Positions 2,586-32,861 of a DNA stretch of 64,000 nt are shown here, piece after piece (within the stretch, counting starts at the first letter, position 1; every line of letters begins with the position of its first letter). Both the position numbers and the translations under genes were made by a program. The stretch comes from Bacteroidota bacterium (GTDB lineage: Bacteria; Bacteroidota; Bacteroidia; Flavobacteriales_D; JABDKJ01). The notes beneath the pieces were generated by a model. It saw nothing but the letters and a program-made list of their open reading frames with translations. It made no database searches and had not been told where the DNA came from. The stretch lies in contig JBCCIF010000002.1 in NCBI GenBank assembly GCA_039028335.1, positions 12,317 through 76,316 on the forward strand, given 5' to 3'.

Positions 2586-2611
2586 GTATGAATATACCTA
2601 ATCAAAAATTA

Positions 2612-3418
2612 TTAAAGCGAACCTGATTCTATCGCTTCTCTTACTGATCCGGCTTCCATTAATTTTTTATTGGCTTCTTCATAGGAAATGTTCAAGGCAT
2701 CCATCACCATTTTGGTTCCCCTGTCAACCAATTTATTATTGCTCAATTGCATGTCTACCATTCGATTCCCTTTTACTCGACCTAGTTTGATCATCAGGCT
2801 AGTAGACAGCATATTCAAGACTAGTTTTTGCGCTGTGCCGGATTTCATTCGTGTGCTTCCCGTAATGTACTCAGGACCTACCAGAGGGATGAGTGCATGA
2901 TCAGCTACTTCAGTAATTGGTGATTTGGGATTGCATGTAATGCATCCGGTGAGCAAATTGTGCTCTTGGCACTCTTTGAGTGCCCCCACCACGTATGGCG
3001 TGGTGCCGGATGCAGCGATCCCTATTACCGAGTCGTTCTCTCCTATCTCATGAACCAATAAATCCTGCCAACCTTGAGTACCATCGTCCTCGGCAAATTC
3101 AACGGCTTTGCGAATAGCAGTATCCCCGCCAGCCATTAATCCCACTACCAATCCATGGGCCACACCGAAAGTCGGTGGGCATTCCGATGCATCAACAATT
3201 CCCAGACGGCCACTAGTTCCGGCTCCAATATAAAAAAGTCTTCCTCCTGCTTCCATGCGCGGGTGAATTGCATCGACTAGCTCTTTAATTTCTGGAAGTA
3301 TTTCTTTTACAGCGAGCGCTACTTTCTGATCTTCTAGGTTGATGCCCTCTAAAATCTCTTGTGTACTTTTCGCTTCGAGGTGCTGATGCAGTGACTCTCT
3401 TTCGGTAATTTTTTCCAT
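2612..3418 (-). CDS. murQ: N-acetylmuramic acid 6-phosphate etherase
   Basis: 268 aa with a SIS-domain signature GRLFYIGAGTSGRLGIVDASECPPTFG and a conserved C-terminal half (GSTRMKSGTAQKLVLNMLST). Confidence 0.9.
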   Translation of the reverse strand: MEKITERESLHQHLEAKSTQEILEGINLEDQKVALAVKEILPEIKELVDAIHPRMEAGGRLFYIGAGTSGRLGIVDASECPPTFGVAHGLVVGLMAGGDTAIRKAVEFAEDDGTQGWQDLLVHEIGENDSVIGIAASGTTPYVVGALKECQEHNLLTGCITCNPKSPITEVADHALIPLVGPEYITGSTRMKSGTAQKLVLNMLSTSLMIKLGRVKGNRMVDMQLSNNKLVDRGTKMVMDALNISYEEANKKLMEAGSVREAIESGSL

Positions 3419-3624
3419 CAGACAATTTTCAAGATCTGCCCTTCAAATTCGACCCGATCCCCTGGCCTTAATTTTTTCCGTTTTTGCAACTCAGTTTGCC
3501 CATTCACTTCGACCATACCTTCATCGACAACCATCTTCGCCTCTCCTCCACTGCCAACCCAACCAATGGCCTTCAAGGCTTGAATCAGTTGAATGAATTC
3601 ACCATTGATCTGAAATTCTTCCAT
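3418..3624 (-). CDS. RNA-binding S4 domain-containing protein (YbcJ-like)
   Basis: 68 aa with GEAKMVVDEGMVEVNGQTELQKRKKLRPGDRVEF, typical of small S4-domain proteins. Its start and stop each overlap the neighbouring gene by 1 nt. Confidence 0.8.
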   Translation of the reverse strand: MEEFQINGEFIQLIQALKAIGWVGSGGEAKMVVDEGMVEVNGQTELQKRKKLRPGDRVEFEGQILKIV

Positions 3625-6041: not shown

Positions 6042-6091
6042 GGGCTCTTTGAAAGGTGGCGCAAAGATACGATTTTCAAATTTTTAAAATC

Positions 6092-15348: not shown

Positions 15349-18300
15349 TCAATTCAAAGAGTACTTGACGTTTTCAAATGCATCCAAAGCTTGCAAGAAA
15401 TCATTACTTGCTTCTATCTTTTTGGACTTTGAAGGCATGGAAATTGATTTTCCTTCCAAATCAAAGACCTCAAATTTCAAATTACAATTCCCTTGATTGG
15501 CTTTAACTAAGTCATTCAATTGACCGACAAAGTCTTGATTTAAATCACTTAACCTTAAAGATATTTTCACCTCTTTCGTTGAAGCTCCCATTATCTCTGA
15601 AAGCAATTCAATTCCAGTTATTTTGAACTCAACTTCCCCTTCTCGAAACCTGTGTTTTTGAACTCTTCCGTTAATCATGAGAAAATTCCCGATTTGGAAG
15701 AAATGTTTCATACGCAAATAGTCTTCGCCAAATAACACAAATTCATGCGTGGACTTGTAGTCTTCCATTTCAAAACTTCCAAAAGGCTTACCCTTTTTAG
15801 TTACCCGATGATTGACTTTAGTGACCATGCCGGGGAGTTTGAATAATGTATTCACATATCGTTCGATATCGGACATGACGGATAAATCTCCTTGAGCAAA
15901 ATGCTCTACTTGCTTCTTAAAATCATCTAAAGGATGCCCAGATACATAAATTCCAATAACCTCTTTTTCTTTTCTCAACATCTCTAAAGTCGACCAAATG
16001 TTTTCTACCTCTGGAACTTCAGGTTTTCTGATTTCTACTTCCAGGGAATCTCCAAATAAATCAGGCGGGCGTTCATCATTGGCACGAAGCGCTTGCCCAA
16101 ACTTCATCATATCTTCCATAAAAGTCCGCTCTCCATCGTAAGGCACGATATATTTTGAGCGCATCAATCCAAAACAATCAAATGCTCCTCCTACGATCAA
16201 ATTCTCAATGCTGCGTTTATTCGCAGCTCTCAAATCAATTCGCGAGACCAAATCAAAACAATCGCTGTACTTACCGTCCTTATTTCGTTCATCAACAATA
16301 CTCTCGACCGCATTCGAACCAACTCCCTTGATTGCCCCCATACCAAAGCGGATTTCTCCCTTTTTGTTGACCGTAAAAAGGTAATCACTTTCGTTTACAC
16401 AGGGACCCAACACAGGGATTCCCATTTTTTTGGATTCCTGCATGAATTTCTCAACGGTCTTAATTTGATTGAGGTTATTACTCAGGAGAGAGGCCATAAA
16501 TTCTGCTGGATAATTTGCTTTGAGGTATGCAGTTTGATAGCCCAACAAAGCATAGCAGGTAGAATGTGACTTATTGAAGGCATAGGAAGCAAAAGCTTCC
16601 CAATCTTTCCAAATCTTATTGACCTTATCTTCGGGATGCCCATTGGATTGGCAACCATCAAGAAACTTTGGGAACATTTTATCCAGAACATCCTTTTTCT
16701 TTTTCCCCATGGCCTTTCTAAGGACATCGGCTTCACCCTTGGTAAAATTGGCCAACTTTTGTGATAAGAGCATTACCTGCTCCTGATAGACCGTGATACC
16801 ATATGTCGCTTCTAAGTGTTCTTTGCAATCCTCAAGATCGTACTTGATTTCTTCTTGTCCGTGTTTCCGCTTAATGAAAGATGGAATATAAGCCAAAGGT
16901 CCTGGTCGATAAAGGGCATTCATAGCAATGAGATCATCAAACTTATCAGGTTTCAAATCCTTCATATGCTTTCTCATCCCATCGGATTCATATTGAAATA
17001 TACCTACCGTTTCTCCTCTTTGAAATAGCTCATAGGTTTTTATATCATCGAGAGGGATATCATCGGCAATAATTTCAATATTGTGATTTTGCTTTACCAA
17101 AGCAATCGCATCATCAATGATTGTGAGGGTTTTCAATCCCAGAAAATCCATTTTCAACAAGCCTGCATCCTCCACAACAGAGTTGTCAAACTGGGTACAA
17201 ACCATGTCCGAATCTTTGGCCGTTGCAACAGGCACTAAATTGGTCAGGTCCTCAGGCGTGATGATTACACCACATGCGTGTATACCCGTATTTCGCACCG
17301 ATCCTTCAATAACTCTTGCTTGAGCAATGGTGTCGGCAGACTCTTCCTTTCCATTGGCAATCTTCATGAACTGCTGAACCTTATCGTATTGCTCGTTCTG
17401 AAAGCGATGTTTCAATTCCTTATCATCAAAAGAGAATAATTTCTTTAGAGATGTAAAGTCAGGAATCAGTTTCGCAATTCGATCAGCATCACTTAATGGC
17501 AATTCCATAACCCTCGCAGTATCTCGAATAGAAGACTTGGCTGCCATAGTACCAAAAGTTATGATCTGTGCTACATTAGATGCACCATACTTATTGACTA
17601 CCCATTCTATAATCTTATCGCGGCCGCGATCGTCAAAATCAATATCGATATCGGGAAGTGAAACCCTTTCCGGATTGAGAAAACGCTCGAACAGGAGATC
17701 GTATTTGATCGGATCGACATTCGTAATCCCAATACAATAGGCAACTGCAGACCCTGCAGCACTTCCTCTGCCCGGCCCAACAGAAACGCCCATTTTCCTG
17801 GCTTGAGAGGTGAAGTCTTGAACGATCAAGAAATATCCCGGATAACCTGTATTCTCGATTACGGATAACTCAAAATCCAACCTGTTCTTAATCTCTTCAC
17901 TTATTTCTCCATAGCGCTTTTTCGCGCCTTCATGCGTCAAATGTCTGAGGTAATTGTTTTCTCCTCGATTTCCATCGTCAGCATCATCTTGTGCATCTCT
18001 GAATTCTTCTGGAATATCAAATTTTGGTAAGAGCACATCATGACGGAGCGTGTAGGGTTCAAATTTTTCAAGAAGCCCGCTTAAATTGTCTATGCATTCA
18101 GGTAAATCTGCGAAAAGAGCGCGCATTTCGTCACTCGACTTGAAATAAAACTCCTCATTCGGAAATCCAAATCTGTAATCACGCCCCCTCTTTCCTGTGT
18201 ACTTTTTTGGTGTTGATTGATTCTCTGCGTCTTTCACACAAAGAAGAATATCATGCGCATTCGCGTCTTCCTTATCAATATAATAGGTGTTATTTGCCGC

Positions 18301-19653
18301 TATCATCTTCACATCCATCTCGCGTGCAAATTTTTGTAAGATCATATTTACGCGATCTTCTTCTGGCAAACCATGACGATTTAGCTCGAGATAAAAATCA
18401 TCTCCAAAAGTCTGGCTCCACCACAAACAGGCTTCTTGTGCCTGCTTCTCCCCAACATTCAATATTAAAGAGGAAATCTCTCCAAAAATCCCGCCTGAAA
18501 TGACCATTAAATCTTCCTTGAATTCCTCAATTAACTTTCTGTCAACCCGAGGCACATAATAAAAGCCATCTACATAAGCTTTGGAAGCCAATTTGATCAG
18601 GTTCTTATATCCTTGAAAATTCTTGGCCAATAACACTGTTGGAAAGCCGTTGTCTTTGACGGACTTATTGCTATGATCTTTGCACACATTCAATTCTATT
18701 CCCACAATACCGAGAATCTCATTCTGCTCACATGCATTTACGAACTGAAATGCACCGTATAGATTACCGTGATCAGAAAATGCAACAGCCGGCATTTTTA
18801 ATTCTTTGGCCTTTGCTACCAAAGATTTGACATTGGTGGTGGATTGCAATACGGAAAAGCCTGTATGGTTATGAATATGAAAAAATTCTCCTGTGCTTTG
18901 TTGAACATCGCTGACTTTTCCATACTCATCAATCACATCTCCTTCTTCCTCGAGGGCTTCCTCAGACAAGGGCGTATAAGGTTGTATGTTTAGGCCTATG
19001 GCCTGAATTACATCAGGATTATTCGTTTTGAATTCTGCGCGATCGATTTCATTCCAATCAAGCACCTCGTTTTTTAAAACATCTACGCGAATCAGTTCCA
19101 GAAAACAACGGGCGGTGGCCTCCACATCGGCACTGGCATTATGAGCAGCATCAAATCCCTCATTAAATAATTTGTGATGCAACTCCTCTAGTTTGGGGAA
19201 TTTGAATTTACCTCCTTTGCCTCCTGGTAATGCACAGAAATCTACGGTGCTCTTCATGGTGTCGACAAGTCCTATATCGCGAATAGAGCTTAACACACCA
19301 TAGCGGTGCATTTCAGAACCAACAACGTTTATGTCGAAACCAATATTATGCCCGACATTAAATTGTGCTTTTTGTAATGCTCGGTTAAACTCCTCAAGTA
19401 CCTGATGAACATCAACACCTTGTTTTATCGCCCGTTCTGTTGAAATCCCATGAATTTGCTCGGAATTATATGGAATGTCAAAACCGTCCGGTTTGACGAT
19501 AAAGTTCTTGACTTCAATCAAGTCCCCCTTTGCATCATGAAGCTGCCAGGCCAATTGCACCATTCGACAGGAATCATAAGCCTGAAGATCTGAATATGGT
19601 GCATCAAAATAGGCTGGAAATCCAGTCGTTTCTGTATCGTAGATGAGGAACAT
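15349..19653 (-). CDS. dnaE: DNA polymerase III alpha subunit with N-terminal DEDDh 3'-5' exonuclease (epsilon-like) domain
   Basis: 1434 aa. Exonuclease motifs are IYDTETTG (ExoI), VGHNIGFDINVV (ExoII) and HNASADVEATARCF (ExoIII). These are followed by a PHP domain (FFHIHNHTGFSVLQS), the pol III alpha core (GPGRGSAAGSAVAYCIGITNVDP, DIDIDFDD) and an OB-fold C-terminus. Confidence 0.95.
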   Translation of the reverse strand: MFLIYDTETTGFPAYFDAPYSDLQAYDSCRMVQLAWQLHDAKGDLIEVKNFIVKPDGFDIPYNSEQIHGISTERAIKQGVDVHQVLEEFNRALQKAQFNVGHNIGFDINVVGSEMHRYGVLSSIRDIGLVDTMKSTVDFCALPGGKGGKFKFPKLEELHHKLFNEGFDAAHNASADVEATARCFLELIRVDVLKNEVLDWNEIDRAEFKTNNPDVIQAIGLNIQPYTPLSEEALEEEGDVIDEYGKVSDVQQSTGEFFHIHNHTGFSVLQSTTNVKSLVAKAKELKMPAVAFSDHGNLYGAFQFVNACEQNEILGIVGIELNVCKDHSNKSVKDNGFPTVLLAKNFQGYKNLIKLASKAYVDGFYYVPRVDRKLIEEFKEDLMVISGGIFGEISSLILNVGEKQAQEACLWWSQTFGDDFYLELNRHGLPEEDRVNMILQKFAREMDVKMIAANNTYYIDKEDANAHDILLCVKDAENQSTPKKYTGKRGRDYRFGFPNEEFYFKSSDEMRALFADLPECIDNLSGLLEKFEPYTLRHDVLLPKFDIPEEFRDAQDDADDGNRGENNYLRHLTHEGAKKRYGEISEEIKNRLDFELSVIENTGYPGYFLIVQDFTSQARKMGVSVGPGRGSAAGSAVAYCIGITNVDPIKYDLLFERFLNPERVSLPDIDIDFDDRGRDKIIEWVVNKYGASNVAQIITFGTMAAKSSIRDTARVMELPLSDADRIAKLIPDFTSLKKLFSFDDKELKHRFQNEQYDKVQQFMKIANGKEESADTIAQARVIEGSVRNTGIHACGVIITPEDLTNLVPVATAKDSDMVCTQFDNSVVEDAGLLKMDFLGLKTLTIIDDAIALVKQNHNIEIIADDIPLDDIKTYELFQRGETVGIFQYESDGMRKHMKDLKPDKFDDLIAMNALYRPGPLAYIPSFIKRKHGQEEIKYDLEDCKEHLEATYGITVYQEQVMLLSQKLANFTKGEADVLRKAMGKKKKDVLDKMFPKFLDGCQSNGHPEDKVNKIWKDWEAFASYAFNKSHSTCYALLGYQTAYLKANYPAEFMASLLSNNLNQIKTVEKFMQESKKMGIPVLGPCVNESDYLFTVNKKGEIRFGMGAIKGVGSNAVESIVDERNKDGKYSDCFDLVSRIDLRAANKRSIENLIVGGAFDCFGLMRSKYIVPYDGERTFMEDMMKFGQALRANDERPPDLFGDSLEVEIRKPEVPEVENIWSTLEMLRKEKEVIGIYVSGHPLDDFKKQVEHFAQGDLSVMSDIERYVNTLFKLPGMVTKVNHRVTKKGKPFGSFEMEDYKSTHEFVLFGEDYLRMKHFFQIGNFLMINGRVQKHRFREGEVEFKITGIELLSEIMGASTKEVKISLRLSDLNQDFVGQLNDLVKANQGNCNLKFEVFDLEGKSISMPSKSKKIEASNDFLQALDAFENVKYSLN

Positions 19654-20626: not shown

Positions 20627-21637
20627 ATGCCTACAAAAATCAGGCTTCAGAGACACGGAAAGAAGCGTTACCCTTATTATTATATCGTAGCCGTAGACGG
20701 CAGAGAAAAGAGAGATGGAAAGTACATTGAGCGTTTGGGAGAATATGACCCGAACACCAACCCAGCGACTATTAATCTCGATTTTGACCGCGCACTTTAT
20801 TGGTTGCAAGTTGGTGCTCAACCAACAGATACCATGCGAGCTATTTTGTCATACAAAGGAGTGATGCATAAAAATCACTTGTTGAATGGAGTCAAAAAAG
20901 GTGCATTCTCAGAAGATGAAGCAGAAAAGAGATTTGCTTCTTGGATGGAAGAGAAAGAATCTAAAATTAAAGCGAAAAGAGAAGGATTGATTGCTTCTGC
21001 AGATGCTGAATTGGCCGAAAGAATGAAAGCCGAAAAAGCCATAGCAGACAAACGAAGTGCTGAAATCTTGGCTAAGCAAGCTGCTGCTGCAGGTGTTATT
21101 GCTGCCGCTGCTGCTGGAGAAGCAGAAGATGCCGCTGACGTTGCAGATGAAGCAGGTGATATTGCAGAAGATGCTGCTGAGCAAGCAGAAGCCATGGCTG
21201 ATGTAGCCGAGGCTGCTGCTGAAGATGGCAATGCAGAAATCGCTGCCGAAGCTGCTGAAGCTGCCGAAGAAGCTGCTGCCGTTGCTGAAGAAGTTGCTGA
21301 AGTTGCGGAAGACGCGGCAAAAGAAGCTGAAACTGCGGCTGAAGCTGCTGCTGACATCGCTGAAGAAGCGACAGAAAAAGCTGAAGAGGCCGTTGAAGCT
21401 GCTGCTGAAGAAGGAACAGCTGAAGCTGTTGAAGCTGCTGAGAAAGCAGTAGAAGCTGCGGATGCTGCAACCGAAGCTGCTGAGGAAGCAGCTGAAGATG
21501 CTGCAGAAGCGAAAGAGGATGCAGAAGAAGCAAAAGAAGATGCAGAAGAAGCTGCAGAGGCCGCTGAAGATGCTGCTGAAGCTGCCGCTGAAGTAGCAGA
21601 AGAACAAGCCGAAGAGGCTGCTTCTGAAGAAGAATAA
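20627..21637 (+). CDS. rpsP: 30S ribosomal protein S16 with a long Ala/Glu-rich C-terminal extension
   Basis: The N-terminus MPTKIRLQRHGKKRYPYYYIVAVDGREKRDGKYIERLGEYDP...ALYWLQVGAQPTDT is canonical S16. Residues ~151-336 are low-complexity A/E sequence. Confidence 0.9.
   Translation: MPTKIRLQRHGKKRYPYYYIVAVDGREKRDGKYIERLGEYDPNTNPATINLDFDRALYWLQVGAQPTDTMRAILSYKGVMHKNHLLNGVKKGAFSEDEAEKRFASWMEEKESKIKAKREGLIASADAELAERMKAEKAIADKRSAEILAKQAAAAGVIAAAAAGEAEDAADVADEAGDIAEDAAEQAEAMADVAEAAAEDGNAEIAAEAAEAAEEAAAVAEEVAEVAEDAAKEAETAAEAAADIAEEATEKAEEAVEAAAEEGTAEAVEAAEKAVEAADAATEAAEEAAEDAAEAKEDAEEAKEDAEEAAEAAEDAAEAAAEVAEEQAEEAASEEE
21077..21637 (+). repeat. low-complexity degenerate GCT/GAA-rich coding repeat (Ala/Glu tail of S16)
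   Basis: Reiterated gaagctgctgaagaagc-type units. The region is open in several frames on both strands, which explains the long antisense ORFs in the ORF track. Confidence 0.7.
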
Positions 21638-23027: not shown

Positions 23028-23909
23028 ATGTTCAAAATACTATCCACACTATTGTTCGTATGCCTTATTAACCAAGGGCAAGCAGCAGAAAATATTTATG
23101 AACCGAAAGAGGAAAAGAAAACCTCTGAGGAAGTATATACAATCAATGTCAGCACGTCCGGTGTTGCCATTTCTCCTTCACGTGTACGATTTAATGTAAT
23201 GCCTGGTAAGTCGAAGACTCATCAGATTAAAATCAATAATGATACTGAAGAGGCCAAGGCATTTCGTGTAAAATTCAATGACTTTAACATGAACCAGTTC
23301 GGTAAAAGTCAATTCGTAGAACCCGGTAATGGTAAATATGGAATTTCCAATTGGGTAAGTGTTTCTCCATCATTTATTGAAGTGGCCCCCGGTGAGAAAA
23401 AAGAAGTCACCATTACCATTGATGTTCCCGATGACGAAGCGGGAAAAAAAGCAGCTTGGGGAATCATGATGATCGAAGAAGCAGCAGAAAGAAAAACACT
23501 TGAATACGACCAGAACAACAGCGACCAAATTTCATTTGGTATCGTTCCTACTCTGGCTTTTGGCGTTTTTCTTTATCAAAACCCTCCCGGTGTTTCAACC
23601 AATGAAGTTGAAATTCAAGATTTTTTAATTGAACAAAAAGATGAAAACTATTTTGTCAACATAGATGCGAAGAATGTAGGCACTGGAATTGCCTATTGCA
23701 AAGCTTATGTTGAATTAACCAACTTGAACAACGGTGAACAAGAGAAACTTTTGGTGAAATCTTTCACCATCGTTCCCGACCTCACCCGCGTTTTCAGTTT
23801 TGAACTACCCGAACATTTGAAAAACGGAAAGTATTCTGCTGTAGGGGTCATAGATTATGGCAACCAAGAGGAAATCGAAGCAGCGGAATTAGAATTTGAG
23901 ATCAAATAA
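23028..23909 (+). CDS. secreted two-Ig-domain protein, PapD-like pilus-chaperone candidate
   Basis: 293 aa with a signal peptide (MFKILSTLLFVCLINQGQA|AE). VAISPSRVRFNVMPGKSKTHQIKINNDTEEAKAFRVKF and VSVSPSFIEVAPGEKKEVTITIDVP resemble the PapD_N pattern (..tRviy....l.v.N....p..vq.w / tPPlfrlePg..q.vRi). A second beta-rich domain follows. The gene is confident. The function is inferred. Confidence 0.55.
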   Translation: MFKILSTLLFVCLINQGQAAENIYEPKEEKKTSEEVYTINVSTSGVAISPSRVRFNVMPGKSKTHQIKINNDTEEAKAFRVKFNDFNMNQFGKSQFVEPGNGKYGISNWVSVSPSFIEVAPGEKKEVTITIDVPDDEAGKKAAWGIMMIEEAAERKTLEYDQNNSDQISFGIVPTLAFGVFLYQNPPGVSTNEVEIQDFLIEQKDENYFVNIDAKNVGTGIAYCKAYVELTNLNNGEQEKLLVKSFTIVPDLTRVFSFELPEHLKNGKYSAVGVIDYGNQEEIEAAELEFEIK

Positions 23910-23954: not shown

Positions 23955-24737
23955 ATGAGAAAGTTGAAACTTATGATGTTGGCGGTGGTTGCAGGATTCT
24001 GCTTCCAGACGGCAAACGCACAGTTGATTGATGAGCAGGATGTAACGATTACAATGGAATTACAGCCAGTTCTTCAACTTGACATGAAAACCCCAAACCA
24101 GCTCGAATTTGTATTCGATGAAATTGAAGAGTACTACAGAGGTATTACTCAGTATGCAGCTACAGAATTAAAAGTAAGCTCAAGTGTATCTTGGGACCTT
24201 TATGCTGTAGGTAGATCTAATGGAACGAATTGCGCTGAGTGCTGGGACCAACAATTGGTTTACGGTTCTGGAGGTGTAACTTCTGGAGCACAAGCAAACT
24301 TACCTATGAGTCTTGTAGAATTGAGACAAAACAGAGCTAACTCTGGAGCAGGTGTTGCAACTAGTTTCCCAGATTACAACCAAGCATTCTCACCAGCAGC
24401 TACTGCTTCTGGAGGAAACAGCTTGTACGTAAACGGTGGTACTAATACACCTCCTGGTGTAAACGGTAAGTATATCGCAGGTCACTCTGGAACATCTGGT
24501 ACTCCTGGTACTGATGCTATGGTTGGTGGTTCTTGGATGACTCAAACTGGAACAGCATCTGATTACTACTACACAGTTGATTACAGAATTTTACCTGGTC
24601 TTCCTGCTATTTTCCCAATGGCATTTAACGAAGATGGGGTAACAGCTGAAGATTTATCTACAGTTTCTGCGACTGCTTATGCGCAGCCAGGTGTCTATAC
24701 AATGTACGTACAGTACGTATTGTTGGAAGACCAATAA
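23955..24737 (+). CDS. secreted Gly/Ser/Thr/Ala-rich subunit-like protein (candidate major fibre subunit)
   Basis: 260 aa with a signal peptide ending ANA|Q. The mature N-terminus has alternating hydrophobics (DVTITMELQPVLQL). The C-terminus is QPGVYTMYVQYVLLEDQ. A strong hairpin terminator follows the stop codon. Confidence 0.55.
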   Translation: MRKLKLMMLAVVAGFCFQTANAQLIDEQDVTITMELQPVLQLDMKTPNQLEFVFDEIEEYYRGITQYAATELKVSSSVSWDLYAVGRSNGTNCAECWDQQLVYGSGGVTSGAQANLPMSLVELRQNRANSGAGVATSFPDYNQAFSPAATASGGNSLYVNGGTNTPPGVNGKYIAGHSGTSGTPGTDAMVGGSWMTQTGTASDYYYTVDYRILPGLPAIFPMAFNEDGVTAEDLSTVSATAYAQPGVYTMYVQYVLLEDQ

Positions 24738-24746
24738 AAAGAATTA

Positions 24747-24787
24747 TCAAAGCCGGCTGAAGTCAGTCGGCTTTGAATTTTTTCTTT
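24747..24787 (+). terminator. rho-independent terminator/attenuator between the two subunit genes
   Basis: A 13-bp stem, tcaaagccggctg (24747-24759) paired with cagtcggctttga (24764-24776), contains one G-U pair and a 4-nt loop aagt. It is followed by atttttctttc. Confidence 0.7.
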
Positions 24788-24805: not shown

Positions 24806-25420
24806 ATGTCACCTTTAAAACAAACCATAGTCGGTCTTTTCCTTCTACTAGTTTTGCCATTCAGTGCTCAGATTCACTGTGGCAATGTCGAGTTGAGCGT
24901 TGATGGAAGCACCAATGCTATGATTACTTTCGATGATTTTTCGAAGTATAATGGAGGTGTAACATTAAACAATGCACTTACGCTCAGAGTAAAAGTCGAT
25001 CACCAAGCTGTACCGGATCCCGATTGCAGTTGGTTCCTTAACATGGAAGTATTTAATAATCCTGGAGCAGGAACACCCATCGATGAATGGGAAGAATTGT
25101 TTCAATACGGAAGTGGAAGCTCTGACAATCCAGATCTAGATATTCTTGAAATTAGAATTCGCAACACATGCGCTACGTCTCCTTTAAACGGGACATTTCA
25201 GACCTTTACCAATAACGGTGATATTATGGATATCATTCAATCCATGTTACCTGTAACGCCCGCAGGTTCATGTACAAGCAATGTAAACGGTCCTGGAGAT
25301 TTCAATACCAATTATGATGAATTCACATTCACCGTGGATATTCGAGTGCGACCTACGCTCAATTACAATCCCGGTATATATGAAATGAGTGTGCGTTTTC
25401 ATCTTGAAGAAAACCTATGA
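24806..25420 (+). CDS. secreted subunit-like protein, paralog of 23955-24737 (candidate minor subunit)
   Basis: The ORF-track TTG start (24773) lies inside the terminator stem. ATG 24806 gives MSPLKQTIVGLFLLLVLPFSA|Q. It shares ITFDDFSKYNGGVT and C-terminal NPGIYEMSVRFHLEENL with the upstream subunit and has four Cys residues. Confidence 0.55.
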   Translation: MSPLKQTIVGLFLLLVLPFSAQIHCGNVELSVDGSTNAMITFDDFSKYNGGVTLNNALTLRVKVDHQAVPDPDCSWFLNMEVFNNPGAGTPIDEWEELFQYGSGSSDNPDLDILEIRIRNTCATSPLNGTFQTFTNNGDIMDIIQSMLPVTPAGSCTSNVNGPGDFNTNYDEFTFTVDIRVRPTLNYNPGIYEMSVRFHLEENL

Positions 25421-25432
25421 TCTAAGCCAACC

Positions 25433-28400
25433 ATGAAAAACATTTACCTTAAACTCTTTTTGGCTTTTCTTCTGCTTTTAAGCGTATCTTTTGTTAGCGC
25501 ACAAACAGAAGAAACAGCATTCCCCATTGACTCACTCAATCAGATCATTGACAACTCTACAGATACTATTCCTACTCAAGAAAATACGCCAGTAATTTCA
25601 AACACAGAAGAGCAAGTACAACCCTTTGTTAATCAAGACAGCCTAAACATCAAGCCTCCAAAAATGAACCGAGGTATTGAAATTTCTTTCGCCAAATCCG
25701 AACTAAAACCTGAAAGTGGCGAAATTCTTTCAAATGTTTTAAAAATTGTCAATCACAATACAGAGGCAAAAATCATCCTTCCAGAATACAACCATCCCGC
25801 TTCCTGGAAACTCGTAGGACAAAAGGATGTATGGTATGAAATTCAAGCAAACGATACCATTTATGTGCCCGTTCGAATCATTCCTCAGGCTATCGCTTCA
25901 GGGCAATCAAATTATCAAATAAATGTATTTATCTATAATGATAAAGGCATACAAATCCTAACTGATCATTTCAATTGTGTTACAGATAAAACTGTGCAAT
26001 GGAATGTACAGAATAGCGATGACAAAATTTACTTTAAGCATGGAGAAAACTGGGAGGATTTATCTTTCAACATCTCTAATACTTCGGTTTTTCCACAAGA
26101 GATTTTCATGACAACTGCTGCCGCTAAAGGCAGTTTGGCATTAAGTCGTGATGGAGAAGAGCTTGAAGAAGGTGAATCAAGCACTTTTCAATTGGATTCA
26201 TTTGAGGATACAACATTTACCTATACAGCGACTATTGACAACCTCCGAAGAAACTTCAGACGCGTTTCACTGCTTGGACACATTCCAAACAGAAACAATC
26301 AAACGAGAAGGTATTCAGTATACATGAATACACAAGAAACAAAGTCTGTTGGTCAAACCGATTATAGAAATGGATCGAAAATAGATCTTATAAAACTGGC
26401 CAATGTTTTGAGAGCTACTGAATACAGCTCAAACGATTTACCTCTTGATGTTCAAGCTAACTATCAGAATATTTTAGGTGACTTTCCTTTTCTGTCCATC
26501 AACATGAACGGATACAAGAATTTGAATAACGATGCCAGTTTAAACTACTTTACTCAACTTAATTATAACCAAGTCTTTTGGAATGCACAGAACTTGGGAA
26601 ATATTCCATGGTATTTAGGTTATTTTTCGAGAGAATGGACAGCACAAGCTGGAAACATCAATGGAGGAATCGTAGGAATGCCTGCTGTTGGAAAAGGTGT
26701 AAAAGGATCTTATTTCATAAATCCTCAGCACGAGGTAGGAGGATTCTTTACCTCTTCAAAAGGATTTCTTCAAACCGGTCATACTGACTCATACGGTATT
26801 CATTATCAATACAATTTCCCAAATAATGGCTTTGTCATGGGAAAACTCGGACGTTATACAAATGGCCTGAATGGCACATCTGGTAACGTATTAAGTGTGC
26901 AATCAAGCTACCGTCTCGCTGAAAAACACAGTATCGGAGCATTTGGAGGATTCAGTACGAGAAACTTCTTATGGGGAGGAATCATGACACCTCAAACAGG
27001 AGGACTATTCGGCCTCAACTATACTTCTCGATTTCTTGAAAATAAATTATTTGTGAATGTGGGAGGTCGATACAATTCCAAATTCTTTGGAAACTCGACA
27101 ACTGAAATCCTTACTTCAGACGCTAAAGTACAATATGAAATCAGCAATAAATGGTCAGTATTCTATTCTGGAAACTATGCAAATATTGATGCATTTAATC
27201 CAGCTACGGCATTCTTCAATCCATTTTCGAGCTATGATTTTTTCCAGAACAGAGTCGTTTTCACAACGACAAATAGATGGGGAACATTCAACCCAGGATT
27301 GTACTATAATTTCAATAAATTCTTCGATTACAATGTACAAGCAAGAGGACTCTCTCTTCGTTTTTCAAGATTGAATTATTTGAAGAACACTTTGCTTTCC
27401 TTTTACTCAGAAGCAGGATATACAGATAATAGAGGTCAAAGCGAAATTGGTGACTATTTCAATTTCAGAATGAATATGTTGTACCGAATTCGAACCTTGA
27501 CCTTAACAAGTAATTATCGCTACGGTGCCAACAATAAATCAGCACAAGATTATCAAACGGCTACCGGACAAGCGCCTCAGTTGGGAAGAATTAGCGCTTC
27601 ACACCAATACCTGTTCAACAATCAACATTGGATATTGGAAACCAACACCTCTTATACGTACAACAATCGATTTAAATCACAGTTCTTAGGAATTTTTCCC
27701 GAGCTCTTTTACTTCTCGAATAGTGGATGGAGATATAGTATAAACCCTGGATATACCGTAAGTATTACCAATTACAATGCTGATCTACTCAATCTCTATC
27801 AGAATGTGCCAATTAATTCAGATGATGTTGGAAGTAATGTAAACAAGGGATTTAGATTGAATGTTTCAGCAAGAAAAACCTTTGGAATTCCTATTCCATT
27901 TGTTAAACCACAAAATTCAAATATTTCCTACAACACCTTCTATGATTTGAATGGAAATGATGTACAAGATAAAGGAGAAACTGCTGTTCCCAATGTCGTT
28001 CTAAAGCTCAATGACTACGAAGTTCTTACAAATGACAATGGTTTTGCCTTGATCGAGAACTTGCCGCATGAAACGTATTATTTGCAATCATTCCCACTTG
28101 AAGATATGCAAGGTTGGTTTGCAAAGGTTCCAGATTCACTGGTAATTTCAACAGACATGATTATTCAAATCCCATTCGTAAGAGGAGTAAAAGTAATGGG
28201 AGATGTCATTTTGAATAGACAAGAAATAGCCGTTACAGATGAAAGACCTTTTGATTTATCCAATATCAGAGTTTCTGCAAATGACGGCAATAAAGTCTAC
28301 AGCACGCTTACTAATTTTGACGGTTCATTTGACTTGTATCTTCCAAACGGAAACTATACTTTGACAATTGACGAAAATATATTGGGAGACAAGTATTCTT

Positions 28401-28537
28401 TGCTTCAAAATAATATTGAACTTGACTTAAATAGCGAAATGGAAAACGTGTACACAAGTTTCTATATCGTAGAAAAAGAAAGAAAAGTGAAAGTCAAGAA
28501 GTTTGGTTCACAAGGAACAATCATCAAAAGAAACTAG
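25433..28537 (+). CDS. large secreted outer-membrane protein: N-terminal Ig-like region, Tyr/Asn/Gly/Phe-rich beta-barrel-like core, two C-terminal SdrD-B/carboxypeptidase-regulatory-like domains (usher-like candidate)
   Basis: 1034 aa with a signal peptide (LLLLSVSFVSA|QT). The core, ~aa 300-830, has amphipathic beta-strand periodicity. The C-terminus has YDLNGNDVQDKGETAVPNVVLKLNDYEVLTNDNGFALIENLPHETYYL and a second NFDGSFDLYLPNGNYTLTI module. Confidence 0.5.
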   Translation: MKNIYLKLFLAFLLLLSVSFVSAQTEETAFPIDSLNQIIDNSTDTIPTQENTPVISNTEEQVQPFVNQDSLNIKPPKMNRGIEISFAKSELKPESGEILSNVLKIVNHNTEAKIILPEYNHPASWKLVGQKDVWYEIQANDTIYVPVRIIPQAIASGQSNYQINVFIYNDKGIQILTDHFNCVTDKTVQWNVQNSDDKIYFKHGENWEDLSFNISNTSVFPQEIFMTTAAAKGSLALSRDGEELEEGESSTFQLDSFEDTTFTYTATIDNLRRNFRRVSLLGHIPNRNNQTRRYSVYMNTQETKSVGQTDYRNGSKIDLIKLANVLRATEYSSNDLPLDVQANYQNILGDFPFLSINMNGYKNLNNDASLNYFTQLNYNQVFWNAQNLGNIPWYLGYFSREWTAQAGNINGGIVGMPAVGKGVKGSYFINPQHEVGGFFTSSKGFLQTGHTDSYGIHYQYNFPNNGFVMGKLGRYTNGLNGTSGNVLSVQSSYRLAEKHSIGAFGGFSTRNFLWGGIMTPQTGGLFGLNYTSRFLENKLFVNVGGRYNSKFFGNSTTEILTSDAKVQYEISNKWSVFYSGNYANIDAFNPATAFFNPFSSYDFFQNRVVFTTTNRWGTFNPGLYYNFNKFFDYNVQARGLSLRFSRLNYLKNTLLSFYSEAGYTDNRGQSEIGDYFNFRMNMLYRIRTLTLTSNYRYGANNKSAQDYQTATGQAPQLGRISASHQYLFNNQHWILETNTSYTYNNRFKSQFLGIFPELFYFSNSGWRYSINPGYTVSITNYNADLLNLYQNVPINSDDVGSNVNKGFRLNVSARKTFGIPIPFVKPQNSNISYNTFYDLNGNDVQDKGETAVPNVVLKLNDYEVLTNDNGFALIENLPHETYYLQSFPLEDMQGWFAKVPDSLVISTDMIIQIPFVRGVKVMGDVILNRQEIAVTDERPFDLSNIRVSANDGNKVYSTLTNFDGSFDLYLPNGNYTLTIDENILGDKYSLLQNNIELDLNSEMENVYTSFYIVEKERKVKVKKFGSQGTIIKRN

Positions 28538-29910
28538 GCAATTTCTTTTTCCTGAAATGTAATTCCAAGATTTTCCAATTCGTTTAGAATAGGTGTATAA
28601 ATTGCTGAATGTGTAGGCAGATGTACTCCTTTTAAGTTAATTTGATCGTTCAAAATCAATTTAGCTCCTATTGCTAAGGGAAGACCCACCGTTTTGGCCA
28701 TTCCTGTGTAGATTTCATCATCCCCAATACAAACCAATGAAGACTGTATTTCCTTGGCTTCTTCATCCATTCTAAACCTGAATTGATGCCACATGACAAT
28801 CATATCTTTATCACCATCTTCCAATTGCCATTTCCGCTCCAAAAGTTGCTGAAGTATTTGAGCTGGACTGGCATTTTCAATACCTACTTTCTCGTTTTCA
28901 AATAAGCCCAGCCATTCTAATTTATCAAATACCTCATCCTCAGGATCGAGACGCAGAACATACTTCAATTTTAATTCGACAGAATCACTTGGGTGATACG
29001 CCAAAAATGAATTGGTAAAATCGCGATAGGTCATGTTTTCCGACCCTTCTAACTGATATGTATCATCTGTCATCCCTAATTGAACAAGCGCATCCCAAGC
29101 TCGGCAATAGCCTGATTTCCTGAGCGTACCTCGATAAATTGTAGGAATGTCTTCAAGATTATAAATCGATCGATATTTAAGCGAATCTCTGTTGGCATAG
29201 CCATCAAATTTTCCATATCCATCAATCTGTATTTTCTCTATCCGCTTGAAAAGTTGGTTATAAGGAATGTATTTGTAACGACCATTTCTAATATATTGAA
29301 CGGCTCCTCCCTGCCCAGCCAAGACTACATTTCTCGGGTTCCAAGTAAATTTATAATTCCATGGATTGGTATCGCTCTCAGGTGCTATTAATCCTCCCGT
29401 GAAACTTTTGAAGCTTTCCATTACCCCACCCTTATTTTTCACCTCATCGATGATCTGCATAGCCGACATATGATCCAAGCCTGGATCAAGTCCCATTTCA
29501 TTCAGTATAATAATTCCAGCATCACAAGCATCTGCATCCAAAGCCTTTATATCGTCAGAAACGTATGATGGTGTAATAACGTCTTTCTTAAATGCTATGC
29601 AATCCTTAACCACGTGAATGTGAAAATGAGCAGGTAACATTGAAATAATGAGATCATGCTCTTTGATTTGCTGCTTTCGCTCATCCTCATTCATTGCATC
29701 GAAAACAAGTCCTTTGGCATTTTGCAGTCCTTCTAAACGCTCGTCAATTAGGCTTTGTTCCCTATCAGTAACCGTCAACACCCAATTGTTTTCACTTGAA
29801 TTCTCGGCTAAATATTTTATCAATGAGGAACTTGATCTTCCTGCCCCAATTACCAAAATCTTCTTCATCAATCGATTTATTGAATGCTTCAAATTTAGAT
29901 TTCTTTTCAT
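28534..29910 (-). CDS. saccharopine dehydrogenase family protein (NADP+, L-glutamate-forming type)
   Basis: 458 aa with an N-terminal Rossmann motif KILVIGAGRSSSSLIKYL, plus LNEMGLDPGLDHMSAMQIID and conserved C-terminal blocks. Confidence 0.85.
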   Translation of the reverse strand: MKRNLNLKHSINRLMKKILVIGAGRSSSSLIKYLAENSSENNWVLTVTDREQSLIDERLEGLQNAKGLVFDAMNEDERKQQIKEHDLIISMLPAHFHIHVVKDCIAFKKDVITPSYVSDDIKALDADACDAGIIILNEMGLDPGLDHMSAMQIIDEVKNKGGVMESFKSFTGGLIAPESDTNPWNYKFTWNPRNVVLAGQGGAVQYIRNGRYKYIPYNQLFKRIEKIQIDGYGKFDGYANRDSLKYRSIYNLEDIPTIYRGTLRKSGYCRAWDALVQLGMTDDTYQLEGSENMTYRDFTNSFLAYHPSDSVELKLKYVLRLDPEDEVFDKLEWLGLFENEKVGIENASPAQILQQLLERKWQLEDGDKDMIVMWHQFRFRMDEEAKEIQSSLVCIGDDEIYTGMAKTVGLPLAIGAKLILNDQINLKGVHLPTHSAIYTPILNELENLGITFQEKEIA

Positions 29911-30117: not shown

Positions 30118-31482
30118 ATGAAAAATTTGAAATTTCTCTTATTCTTCTTTATCGCATTTGCATTTATTTCATGTGCCACGTCTAAGTCCTTTTATAAAAA
30201 GGGCATCAAATTAGACGAAGCAGGGATGTCCGAAGAGGCAGCTGAAATGTACATGAAGTCATTGGCCAAGAAAAACACCAATGTCAATTCAAAGATTGCA
30301 CTGAAGAAAACAGGTCAGCGTGCCTTGAATGAAAAATTAGATGATTTCAATAAATCACATATGCTGGAAGATCACGATCAGGCGGTATATGAATTTGAAA
30401 TTGCAAAGCTATTCTTTGACCGTGTTGATGGGTATGGAATAAAATTAGAATTACCCAATCATTACAAAGAGCGCTATGAAAGTTCTGTAGTTGTTTATAA
30501 AGAACAATTGTACATTGAAGGCGTGACTTTGTATGAAGCCAAAAACTACAGCGAAGCGACACGAAAGTTCAATAAGATTTCCGGCTACGATCCGACTTAC
30601 AAGGACATTCAAGATTATAAGGTATTGACTTTTGCTGAGCCTTTGTATGAAAAAGGGATGCTGGCTTACGAGCGAGAAGAATGGAGAAAGGCATACAAAT
30701 ACTTCGATCAAATTCATAAGAAGAATCCAGAATTTCGTGATGTAACCGAGTTATGGCAAAGCAGTTTGGATTACGGAACATTTCCAGTAGCTGTGGTGCC
30801 CTTTGAACATGCTCCAAGTGATAAAGCGAAAAGCGAAAAATTACACTCGAGTATTTTAGGTGAAATAACCTCGATAGACAATCCATTTGTTAAAGTGGTT
30901 GATCGGGAAAATATTGATCAACTTATTGAGGAGCAAACATTAGGATTGAGTGGGGTTGTTGAAGAAGGAACAGCTGCTCAAGTTGGAAAAATACTAGGGG
31001 CGAAAGGAATGATTACAGGAGAAATACTGAATTATTCTCAAAGCCTTGGAAGATTGAAAAAGAAGACGGTACAAGCTTTCGAAGCTTATCAAGTAACCGT
31101 AAAAAATGAAGAAACAGGAAAAGAAGAACAAGTAACAAAATATAAACCCGCCAAATATTTTGATTACTATAATAAAAATGAAATTACCTTTTCAGTTCAG
31201 TACAAATGTACTTCGCTTGAGACAGGACAAATCATCTTTTCTAAAGTGTATGAGAAAACGACCAGTGATGAAATTCATTACGCAGTGTTTAATGGCGAGG
31301 GTAAGAAATTGGTTCCTTCAAAAGATGGACAACCAACTACTAGAAGGCAAGATTATGATGCATTGCAATCTCTTTTGAGAGCAAATAAGACGCTTCTAAC
31401 TCCAGAAGAATTGATTAGTGCCCATTATGATGGCATTGGCACGGAATTGGCAAAAGAAATTGAAGATTACCTTGAATTTTAA
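30118..31482 (+). CDS. lipoprotein with N-terminal TPR-like region and C-terminal CsgG/HfaB-like domain
   Basis: 454 aa with lipobox FAFISC. The C-terminal half, FPVAVVPFEHAPS...FVKVVDRENIDQLIEEQTLGLSGVVEEGTAAQVGKILGAKGMITGEI, follows the CsgG-family pattern (VaV.pF.n...f.vveR..ld.v..Eq.l..sG.v.....a..lGk.lGAd.vi.G.v). Confidence 0.7.
   Translation: MKNLKFLLFFFIAFAFISCATSKSFYKKGIKLDEAGMSEEAAEMYMKSLAKKNTNVNSKIALKKTGQRALNEKLDDFNKSHMLEDHDQAVYEFEIAKLFFDRVDGYGIKLELPNHYKERYESSVVVYKEQLYIEGVTLYEAKNYSEATRKFNKISGYDPTYKDIQDYKVLTFAEPLYEKGMLAYEREEWRKAYKYFDQIHKKNPEFRDVTELWQSSLDYGTFPVAVVPFEHAPSDKAKSEKLHSSILGEITSIDNPFVKVVDRENIDQLIEEQTLGLSGVVEEGTAAQVGKILGAKGMITGEILNYSQSLGRLKKKTVQAFEAYQVTVKNEETGKEEQVTKYKPAKYFDYYNKNEITFSVQYKCTSLETGQIIFSKVYEKTTSDEIHYAVFNGEGKKLVPSKDGQPTTRRQDYDALQSLLRANKTLLTPEELISAHYDGIGTELAKEIEDYLEF
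31436..31452 (+). promoter_or_regulatory. candidate sigma-54-type promoter inside the 3' end of the preceding gene
   Basis: TTGGCACGGAATTGGCA satisfies GG-N10-GC and lies 48 nt upstream of GTG 31485. Confidence 0.4.
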
Positions 31483-31484
31483 GT

Positions 31485-32861
31485 GTGAAGAAAATTACAT
31501 ACATACTGATACTGCTATTCCTTACTTCTTGTGGAAAACAAAAAGTAGTGATTTCTTCTATCCCCGAAATTGTCGAGAAAAATGATGATCGCCCAATTTG
31601 GATAAAAGAAAGACCGCTGGGAGACTTTGAGTACATTGGAATTGGGGCTGCGAGCAAAGTCCGGAATCCGGATGAATACATGAAAGTGGCCAAGAACAAT
31701 GCTCTTTCAGATTTATCATCAGAGATTAAGGTAACAGTCCAATCGAATTCATTCTTGTACGTACTCGATCGTAAGTACAAATTTGATGAAGAATTCAGCC
31801 AGGGAATCCAAACGTTTACCGATCAAAATTTAGAGGGTTTTGAATTCGTAGACTCCTATGAAACTGAGTTTGAATATTGGGTGTATTACCGATTAAATCG
31901 GGCTTTGTACAAAGAGAATTTTGAAAAAAGAAGGCAGGAATCCATCAAAATAAGCCATGATCTATTGAATAAAGGGCAAGAGCAGCGCTATGAGGGAAAT
32001 GTTGAAGGTGCGCTTTCACTTTTTACAAAAGCATTAGGGTCCTTACGCGAATATTGGGGTGAAAGTAATAAGGTAATTACTTCTGAAGGAGAAATCTTTC
32101 TTGAAAATGAAATTTTGTTCAATTTGCAAGAAATGATGAATGACATTAGTCTTCAGCCGGCTACAGAACAAGTCATTTTGAATATGGACAATGACTATCG
32201 ATATAATTTCGCAGTTCATGTAATCAAGAATGGAAATCCATTAAAAAATGCAAAACTCGATTTTTGTTATCCTTCGCAAAAAGGACTTGCTGAAAAGCAC
32301 TTCATCACGAATGAAAACGGAATGTCCGTTGTTCAGATTGAAGACTTTGACAAAGACTTCAAAAAGGAAAATCTGGAAGTGGAAATGGATCTTGAACATT
32401 GGTTAAGTAATGCGAGCGAAATAGAAAAAGAAATACTGAAAATCGTTAAGCCCCGCAAATTATCCATTCCTATTTTGCTGCAGAAGCCCACGTTTTTCTT
32501 CGATGTAAAGGAAAGTAATTTAGGGAGTGATTTGTCATCACCTGTTATCAGTAATGTAATTAAAAATGGTTTAACAAAAAGAGATTTTAAATTGAGTAAT
32601 AATCGAAATGAGAGTGATCTAATTGTTCAACTTTCGGCTTCAACAGAACAAGCCGGAACAAGTTATAGCTTTCACGTAGCTCATTGCGATATGGAAATCA
32701 AGGTCCTCGACAAGAAAGGAAATATTGTTTATCAAAACGCATTTCACGATGTCAAAGGATTGAATGTAAATTTTGAGTCAGCGGGAATAAAAGCACTAAG
32801 TAATGTCGCTGAAAAAGTAAAGAAAACAATGATTAAAGATCTGATAAACAGTGTTTTATAG
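31485..32861 (+). CDS. LPP20-like lipoprotein with extended C-terminal region
   Basis: 458 aa with a GTG start and lipobox LFLTSC. RPIWIKERPLGDFEYIGIGAASKVRNPDEYMKVAKNNALSDLSSEIKVTVQS matches the LPP20 lipoprotein pattern. Confidence 0.65.
   Translation: MKKITYILILLFLTSCGKQKVVISSIPEIVEKNDDRPIWIKERPLGDFEYIGIGAASKVRNPDEYMKVAKNNALSDLSSEIKVTVQSNSFLYVLDRKYKFDEEFSQGIQTFTDQNLEGFEFVDSYETEFEYWVYYRLNRALYKENFEKRRQESIKISHDLLNKGQEQRYEGNVEGALSLFTKALGSLREYWGESNKVITSEGEIFLENEILFNLQEMMNDISLQPATEQVILNMDNDYRYNFAVHVIKNGNPLKNAKLDFCYPSQKGLAEKHFITNENGMSVVQIEDFDKDFKKENLEVEMDLEHWLSNASEIEKEILKIVKPRKLSIPILLQKPTFFFDVKESNLGSDLSSPVISNVIKNGLTKRDFKLSNNRNESDLIVQLSASTEQAGTSYSFHVAHCDMEIKVLDKKGNIVYQNAFHDVKGLNVNFESAGIKALSNVAEKVKKTMIKDLINSVL

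Follow-up and report, generated by a model that had tools for sequence, protein, structure and literature searches.

A four-gene Bacteroidota cassette combines pilins of the TLP-1 fibril family with a probable usher-like outer-membrane platform

We analysed a 64,000-nucleotide stretch of DNA from a Bacteroidota bacterium (hereafter the window; contig JBCCIF010000002.1, positions 12,317 to 76,316, with coordinates below counted from its first letter) and examined a cassette of four genes, g1 to g4, whose last member encodes a large usher-like outer-membrane protein. We find that g4 is probably the outer-membrane assembly and secretion platform, that is, the functional usher, of a four-gene Bacteroidota pilus operon. 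The results establish which genes make up the cassette and how strictly they are linked, to which fold classes the g1 and g4 proteins belong, that g2 is homologous to a solved fibre held together by donor-strand exchange, and that g3 lacks the donor strand. Read from its sequence, the cassette is a new, divergent form of chaperone-usher-type pilus assembly, and it offers the orphan TLP-1 fibre family candidate genes, a phylum (Bacteroidota), a proposed assembly pathway and carriers that can be cultured. The four genes lie in tight order on the same strand:

23028-23909, plus strand: g1, 293 residues, secreted two-domain PapD-like/WxLIP-like protein
23955-24737, plus strand: g2, 260 residues, predicted major pilin, homologue of the TLP-1a/b protomer
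24806-25420, plus strand: g3, 204 residues from its ATG, predicted minor pilin paralogue without the donor strand
25433-28537, plus strand: g4, 1034 residues from an ATG start, last gene of the cassette, usher-like outer-membrane protein

Linkage and range of the cassette

We called open reading frames (ORFs) in 85 related loci and iterated hidden Markov models (HMMs) for the four proteins. All four families were present in each of the 73 loci with enough flanking DNA, the remaining 12, whose contig ends 1.8 kb or less upstream of g4, being left out of this count. The order g1-pilin-pilin-g4 was found in 69 loci, one of them with a duplicated g2, and four loci (L005, L063, L084 and L085) carry the same four families in permuted order. 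The original prediction had proposed checking whether homologues of g4 always sit next to a gene-1-like protein, and among the 73 loci this linkage is universal. Genes flanking the cassette differ completely between lineages, and no fifth conserved gene emerged from a search of the 85 loci, in which the most frequent neighbours are housekeeping genes present in at most 19 loci.

A word-indexed protein search returned only 18 relatives of g4 and made it appear a rare family, a view overturned by an exhaustive profile search that gave 3687 matches at E <1e-3, 457 of them at E <1e-30, with more than 130 listed cluster representatives matching at full length. A scan of one genome per species confirmed 108 g4 loci. 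The best 80 were retained, and every one of these belongs to Bacteroidota (metagenome-assembled genomes of Flavobacteriales, Chitinophagales and Bacteroidales). Carriers available in culture include Polaribacter, Pseudotenacibaculum haliotis KCTC 52127 and Wenyingzhuangia heitensis DSM 101599. With these carriers in culture, the question of what makes TLP-1-type fibres becomes directly testable.

The major pilin belongs to the TLP-1 family

TLP-1a/b are 8-nm helical tubules from Tsinghua Lotus Pond water, solved by cryo-electron microscopy in 2024 at 3.2-3.5 Å, in which donor-strand exchange places the N-terminal beta1 strand of protomer n+4 in the cleft of protomer n (PMC11494351). Their authors took CupE as the donor-strand-exchange comparator and described the fibrils as uncategorised bacterial pili whose source species was not identified, with neither mass spectrometry nor metagenomics giving a match (PMC11494351). 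The text of that study mentions ushers and chaperones in its reference list only and holds nothing on an operon, and our search of the literature found no later paper tying TLP-1 to one.

The g2 family profile matched PDB chains 9ikk_A ('TLP-2', E 7.5e-65) and 9ikj_A ('TLP-1', E 2.7e-62) over profile positions 23-257, the whole mature protein, and the window's g2 shares 36.8% identity with 9ikj over residues 24-258. We take these two entries, of 16 chains each, to be the CryoSeek study's TLP-1a/b fibrils, since sequences and fibre description both agree, the PDB names differing only slightly from those in the paper. The modelled fibre chain begins at the equivalent of g2 Q23, predicted to be position +1 once the signal peptide is cleaved, and stops no more than two residues from the C-terminus of g2. 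The building block is therefore the whole mature protein, and no proteolytic maturation is needed. The most conserved g2 stretch is the segment aligned with the exchanged strand:

24024-24068, plus strand: g2 residues 24-38 (LIDEQDVTITMELQP), N-terminal donor strand, corresponding to beta1 of TLP-1

Together with the C-terminal strand, this donor strand is the most conserved part of g2 across the phylum. Searches found 727 proteins matching TLP-1 itself; its nearest natural relatives among 5.8 billion proteins have 54-57% identity, and the exact TLP-1 producer is thus not among them. Two of these relatives, on long contigs, sit in the same four-gene arrangement, and by HMM the neighbours of one near relative (locus L091) are g1-like (3.8e-93), g3-like (9e-49) and g4-like (3e-222). 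Judged by sequence homology, g2 is the predicted main subunit of a pilus operon and belongs to the same family as the TLP-1 fibril. The g1, g2 and g3 proteins each carry a type I signal peptide; in the g2 and g3 families neither a lipobox nor a type IX C-terminal domain was found. As a separate observation, a Bacteroidales locus (L049, 3331-4960) has two tandem g2 copies, of 262 and 258 residues, ahead of g3 and g4.

The minor pilin lacks the donor strand

Profile comparison of g2 and g3 with hhalign gave a probability of 99.1% (E 6.6e-19), with an 11-residue gap in g3 opposite g2 KDVTITMDLQP (consensus numbering), the core of the donor strand. Consistent with this gap, matches of the g3 profile to the TLP chains begin only at residue 19 (E 5.5e-7). 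The g3 protein keeps the motif of its C-terminal strand and shows four conserved cysteines. It is likely a putative tip or initiator subunit, since a subunit that accepts a strand without donating one fits only the distal end of a fibre growing from its base; we infer that it would hold the position that tip adhesins occupy in chaperone-usher pili.

Both pilin families carry an invariant W-x-L at aligned positions (g2 residues 80-82, g3 residues 76-78) and a C-terminal [Y/F]-x-L-x-E. These motifs recall the dual Trp-x-Leu signature of Gram-positive WxL domains, a resemblance only, and homology of g2 and g3 to those domains is accordingly put forward as a hypothesis. The same motifs, W-x-L together with the C-terminal [Y/F]-x-L, favour an alternative in which the cassette builds a non-filamentous surface complex, a diderm counterpart of the Gram-positive WxL/Csc clusters, with a TLP-1 fibre made by some members only. 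We consider this improbable. The window's g2 aligns end to end with a fibre protomer, the strands most conserved across the phylum are the donor and C-terminal ones, and the Pfam WxL model (PF13731) matched none of 27 g2 members at E up to 1 and none of 26 g3 members at E up to 10.

The mechanical ORF call starts g3 at a TTG (24773), which is wrong because it falls inside a hairpin that follows g2; the ATG at 24806 gives the 204 residues typical of homologues.

24747-24786, plus strand: terminator-like hairpin with a T-run, starting 10 nt after the g2 stop codon

The hairpin has a 13-pair stem (7 G-C), a 4-nt loop and the tail ATTTTTTCTT. Of the 68 canonical loci, 65 have an equivalent behind g2, compared with 14 behind g1 and 19 behind g3, and there is one in L091 too. 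A hairpin behind the major-pilin gene is a classical feature of fimbrial operons, and the one found here fits a putative intra-operon attenuator.

The g1 protein is a likely chaperone

The g1 protein has a signal peptide, is soluble, carries no transmembrane helix or membrane anchor and ends in a beta-strand (...AELEFEIK). Its N-terminal domain matches Pfam WxLIP_PGBD/DUF916 (PF06030), scoring 36.6 bits where the cut-off is 27.3, and the same model is matched by 22 of the 23 family members; weaker family matches are to the MSP, ASH and Cep192 immunoglobulin (Ig)-like models. A single member of the 23 matched PapD_N (PF00345, E 3.3e-5), and no match to DUF3324/HBD (PF11797) was found in g1 or its family.

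An AlphaFold2 model of g1 (predicted local distance difference test score, pLDDT, 81) consists of two beta-sandwich domains. Foldseek returned Enterococcus faecium WxLIP structures as its best matches (9i25_C and 9i1y, ~5e-12), followed by CfaA, Caf1M, CsuC, PapD, FimC, YadV, CupB2, FaeE, EcpB and DraB; more than 30 chains of chaperone-usher chaperones matched at E 1e-10 to 6e-8. An hhalign comparison with six E. coli chaperones gave a weak match (E 0.006, probability 6%) in the correct register, and the position aligned with the cleft arginine of PapD is Arg in the window's g1 and His in most relatives. Searching PDB sequences with the g1 profile yielded no chaperone and no WxLIP; marginal hits to synaptotagmin C2 (E ~1e-3) were treated as chance similarity between beta-sandwiches.

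23538-23588, plus strand: g1 residues 171-187 (G..PT.AFG...YQNPP), the most conserved g1 segment

Eleven residues of this segment are invariant (G171, P174, T175, A177, F178, G179, Y183, Q184, N185, P186 and P187). In the model it comes after a low-confidence loop (residues 151-170, pLDDT 62-64) and includes a strand at residues 177-184. With the preceding loop it resembles the WxLIP hairpin, which AlphaFold predicts to turn into a strand that completes the beta-sandwich of the WxL partner (PMC10599100). By this analogy, residues 171-187 are a candidate complementing strand. The g1 protein as a whole is the likely periplasmic chaperone.

Sequence, domains and predicted fold of g4

The g4 model was built with AlphaFold2 from an alignment of 12 sequences (mean pLDDT 74, predicted template modelling score, pTM, 0.52). 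It shows a signal-peptide helix at residues 2-21 and an unstructured Thr/Gln/Asn-rich linker at residues 24-74 (pLDDT <50), followed by four structured regions:

25661-26242, plus strand: g4 residues 77-270, N-terminal beta-sandwich (Ig-like) region, from AlphaFold2 secondary structure
26306-27892, plus strand: g4 residues 292-820, beta-barrel of ~26-28 strands, from the AlphaFold2 strand list
27914-28222, plus strand: g4 residues 828-930, first C-terminal beta-sandwich, SdrD_B/SpaA-like, from AlphaFold2 and Pfam
28268-28474, plus strand: g4 residues 946-1014, second C-terminal domain, CarboxypepD_reg/transthyretin-like, from AlphaFold2 and Pfam

The original prediction had described g4, from the letters alone, as a signal peptide, a Thr/Gln/Asn-rich linker, an Ig-like part, an internal barrel and two C-terminal modules, a description that the ORF and the model match. 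The N-terminal region is probably periplasmic; its first domain aligns weakly with the N-terminal domain of g1 (hhalign E 0.0023, probability 12%), and a few g4 relatives match FixG_C, NPCBM_assoc or MSP Ig-like models there. The barrel comprises 26 long up-and-down meander strands at residues 335-820 and a hairpin at residues 292-321, in a block with pLDDT mostly 80-93, the strand number being counted from predicted secondary structure only. Since the chain does not finish in a barrel strand, the barrel is internal. It holds PWY.GYF, the most conserved motif of the family, as seen in the invariant columns and in the conserved pattern with which related loci were sought; a Gly-rich stretch lies at residues 392-424.

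Against Pfam, g4 itself gave sub-threshold matches to SdrD_B (residues 835-885, E 9.7e-5) and CarboxypepD_reg (residues 938-980, E 4.4e-7). The suggestion that the C-terminal modules resemble SdrD-B or carboxypeptidase-regulatory domains is borne out among 48 diverse relatives, 34 of which match SdrD_B and 42 CarboxypepD_reg (best E 8.5e-12). Neither g4, at E up to 1, nor any of the 48 relatives, at E up to 0.01, matched the Usher, PapC_N, PapC_C, TonB-dependent receptor, plug, Omp85 or LptD models, in line with the earlier remark that g4 was not recognised as a TonB-dependent receptor, BamA or LptD. A search of g4 against NCBIfam returned nothing, and searches of PDB sequences with the single sequence and two profiles returned no outer-membrane family, the sole match being a transthyretin-like domain of NOMO (E 0.0014).

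Length variants of g4 occur in other loci. Polaribacter g4 proteins (L030, 4318-8835; also L031, L037, L038 and L052) have 1470-1780 residues, with an extra Lys/Arg/Ile-rich N-terminal region of ~500 residues or more that contains repeats of ~22-24 residues (…RQDSIRIAKAN…) and is coiled-coil-like in look; a relationship of this extension to g1, g2 or g3 was considered and rejected, as it is unrelated to all three. Some other g4 proteins (L007, 5884-9540; also L042, L051 and L076-L079) have 1150-1220 residues and a C-terminal extension, which in L007 consists of an Asn/Gly-rich low-complexity stretch and then a ~100-residue domain. Within the L007 extension, the segment FRVELVAFSS has what we take to be a resemblance to the SPOR peptidoglycan-binding motif, for which Pfam gives no match; if the resemblance is true, the C-terminus of g4 would be periplasmic.

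g4 as a probable functional usher

A Foldseek search with the g4 model placed FimD/PapC ushers at ranks 1-3, 6-8, 10 and 11, with E-values of 2.6e-11 to 2e-8 and alignments of 800-850 columns. The first TonB-dependent receptor in the list appeared at E 3.5e-7, leaving ushers ahead by about four orders of magnitude in E-value. The structural check that the original prediction had called for thus came out as it expected, with an internal barrel flanked by beta-sandwiches and FimD/PapC as the best PDB matches. In the secondary-structure map, g4 has the usher-type layout of an internal barrel, an N-terminal periplasmic domain and two C-terminal beta-sandwiches, and it is encoded with a PapD-fold protein and members of a donor-strand-exchange pilin family. 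We therefore read g4 as an usher by function, because it is the sole outer-membrane protein in a co-inherited set that contains a chaperone-fold protein and donor-strand-exchange pilins with Sec signals, and because its domain order mirrors that of an usher and its best structural matches are FimD and PapC.

Several results weigh against this reading. The HMM comparison with PF00577, PF13954 and PF13953 was negative throughout, with no usher Pfam match in g4 or its 48 relatives, so that g4 is no sequence member of the usher family. Profile searches of the PDB with g4 returned no usher, and hhalign of the g4 family against the E. coli K-12 ushers FimD, HtrE, YehB, ElfC and YraJ, run with the whole protein and separately with its N-terminal, barrel and C-terminal parts, gave probabilities below 1%. 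Template modelling (TM) scores of the Foldseek alignments with ushers are low (0.2-0.35), and the barrel alone fits barrels of TonB-dependent receptors about equally (target-normalised TM up to 0.46). The model itself rests on 12 sequences with a pTM of 0.52. It predicts 26-28 barrel strands compared with 24 in ushers, and shows no insertion of 40 residues or more between consecutive strands, and so no plug-sized insert, the longest gaps lying at residues 378-393, 697-716 and 779-802. Finally, an n+4 donor makes TLP-1 a set of four separate strand-linked chains in an 8-nm tubule, which would be hard to thread through one monomeric barrel.

Weighing these points, we conclude that g4 is most likely the functional usher of a new, sequence-unrelated chaperone-usher-like pathway; an usher by function is the best reading, and by family membership it is not one. 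The earlier proposal of a protein that is 'usher-like, or a new type of OM assembly platform' is supported, and 'a new platform type working like an usher' is the accurate wording, because the predicted barrel counts 26-28 strands in place of 24, with no plug insertion to be seen. The wider barrel would suit a pilin of ~235 residues.

Very much less probable is that g4 forms a channel for solutes or nutrients, either a TonB-dependent-like transporter or a large porin, and simply adjoins the pilin genes. Receptor barrels do match the g4 barrel (E ~1e-7 to 1e-6, with the target-normalised TM given above), and CarboxypepD_reg-like domains also occur on SusC-type transporters of Bacteroidota. However, none of the 48 members has a plug, TonB box or receptor Pfam match, the transthyretin-like domains of g4 are C-terminal rather than N-terminal, and g4 is strictly co-inherited with g1-g3 even where the gene order is permuted. 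As a TonB-dependent receptor proper, g4 was rejected for want of any plug (PF07715) or barrel (PF00593) match, its likeness in Foldseek being generic to barrels.

It is also unlikely, though less so than a channel, that g4 is an outer-membrane anchor or base rather than a conduit, with the pilins exported otherwise or self-assembling like TasA fibres or archaeal cannulae and g1 acting as a surface adaptor. The missing usher sequence signal in g4 speaks for such an arrangement, as do two further points: WxLIP, the best structural match of g1, is seen by its describers as a surface linker and not a chaperone (PMC10599100), and a four-chain 8-nm tubule (PMC11494351) is ill-suited to one barrel. 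The plain Sec signal peptides of g2 and g3, with neither a type IX C-terminal domain nor a lipobox, instead require an outer-membrane route of their own. Within the strictly conserved set no outer-membrane protein other than g4 occurs, and g1 lacks the membrane anchor that WxLIP proteins have.

Proposed mechanism and meaning

With g4 as the functional usher, the following pathway is suggested, in which the steps of binding and transport are all inferred. The g1, g2 and g3 proteins would cross the inner membrane via Sec, and in the periplasm g1 would lend a strand that caps the open groove of a pilin. Complexes of g1 and pilin would then dock onto the periplasmic beta-sandwich domains of g4, where the N-terminal strand of an incoming g2 (LIDEKDVTxTMDLQP) would oust g1 from the previously added subunit by donor-strand exchange. 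The polymer would leave through the 26-28-strand barrel to form an 8-nm TLP-1-type tubule outside the cell. The g3 subunit, with an acceptor groove and no donor strand, would stand at the distal end only and would probably initiate or cap the fibre, and the hairpin after g2 may set a high expression ratio of pilin to usher.

On a bolder reading, the four strand-linked chains of the fibre would require pores that work as a group or subunits that join four growing ends at once; we know of neither several cooperating pores nor assembly at four ends in chaperone-usher biology. This reading, which we put forward tentatively and consider doubtful, is that the cassette represents a third, anciently separate lineage of strand complementation, with a WxLIP-type chaperone, pilins that are perhaps polymerising relatives of WxL proteins, a plug-less 26-28-strand platform without sequence homology to ushers, and one of these two modes of assembly. 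To our knowledge, DUF916/WxLIP-type proteins have so far come only from Gram-positive WxL clusters.

Our search of the literature found no chaperone-usher system described for Bacteroidota or Flavobacteria. The results indicate that a chaperone-usher-style pathway in Bacteroidota is missed by current Pfam and NCBIfam models.

Neighbouring genes and other observations

The g4 stop codon overlaps by 4 nt (28534-28537) the end of a convergent saccharopine dehydrogenase gene (28534-29910, minus strand), which therefore leaves no room for a terminator after the operon. A sigma-70 promoter scan gave 9 sites against 17.4 in shuffled sequence; this model is unsuited to Bacteroidota promoters, and we claim no promoter. 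Just downstream (30118-32861, plus strand) lie a gene with a CsgG-like domain and TPR (454 residues) and one with LPP20 and DUF3244 (458 residues). This pair may form a separate envelope or secretion module, and it is not conserved beside the pilus cassette in other loci among the 85.

Upstream in the window, a 336-residue ribosomal protein S16 is encoded at 20627-21637 (plus strand); NCBIfam PRK14521 covers its residues 1-183, and an extra acidic Ala/Glu-rich low-complexity tail adds ~150 residues. A 1434-residue DNA polymerase III alpha subunit fused to an N-terminal RNase_T-type exonuclease domain lies at 15349-19653 (minus strand). Elsewhere, the permuted locus L005 contains a CRISPR array of ~78 repeats (~2064-7772) between cas3/cas6b genes and the g4 homologue, with a 37-nt repeat, ATTGGTGAGTAGAATCCATCACAACAAGGATTGAAAC, at a period of ~73-74 nt; the array is unrelated to the cassette.

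Comparison with known systems

The cassette shares with type 1 pili (FimC/FimD/FimA/FimH) and P pili (PapD/PapC) a two-Ig-domain chaperone, a pilin with an N-terminal donor strand, a donor-less subunit and one large barrel protein. As in classical ushers, the g4 chain runs from N-terminal domain(s) through a barrel to two C-terminal beta-sandwiches, and in structural searches ushers are the best match of g4 and chaperones match g1. Unlike classical pili, the pilin is ~235 residues long with a different fold, and the TLP-1 donor comes from n+4 and not n+1 (PMC11494351). Classical ushers have a plug between barrel strands 6 and 7, whereas none is visible in g4, which has two N-terminal beta-sandwiches in place of one small N-terminal domain, C-terminal domains that are transthyretin/SdrD_B-like, ~26-28 strands rather than 24, and no sequence similarity to them. 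The g1 protein differs from classical chaperones in matching PapD_N weakly, and the host phylum, Bacteroidota, also sets the cassette apart from classical chaperone-usher pili.

Archaic (sigma) pili of the Csu/CupE type fall within the Usher and PapD Pfam families, and their pilins are of the SCPU type. One of their chaperones, CsuC, ranks among the leading structural matches of g1, but the cassette shows no Usher- or SCPU-type sequence signal. Type V pili (FimA/Mfa1) occur in the same phylum and likewise hold their fibre together by strand exchange. Their pilins are lipoprotein precursors matured by proteolytic removal of the N-terminal strand, and no usher is known to be involved; in the cassette, by contrast, the pilins carry type I signal peptides and the mature protein enters the fibre as a whole.

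With TLP-1a as well as TLP-1b the likeness extends over the full length of g2, including the N-terminal donor strand and the C-terminal strand. The published work covers the fibre alone (PMC11494351).

Gram-positive WxL clusters resemble the cassette in that the N-terminal domain of g1 is DUF916/WxLIP_PGBD, with E. faecium WxLIP structures as the best PDB matches of g1, and in that one such protein is paired with two partners that are small beta-sandwiches. For WxLIP, the prediction is that it contributes a strand which completes the sandwich of its partner (PMC10599100). WxLIP proteins consist of DUF916, DUF3324 and a transmembrane helix, whereas g1 has neither a DUF3324 match nor an anchor; and, unlike in WxL clusters, g2 and g3 have no WxL Pfam match, the partner polymerises, and the Bacteroidota cassette adds an outer-membrane barrel. 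The comparison offers a concrete link, open to testing, that connects the WxL/WxLIP surface clusters of Gram-positive bacteria with chaperone-usher assembly in Gram-negative ones.

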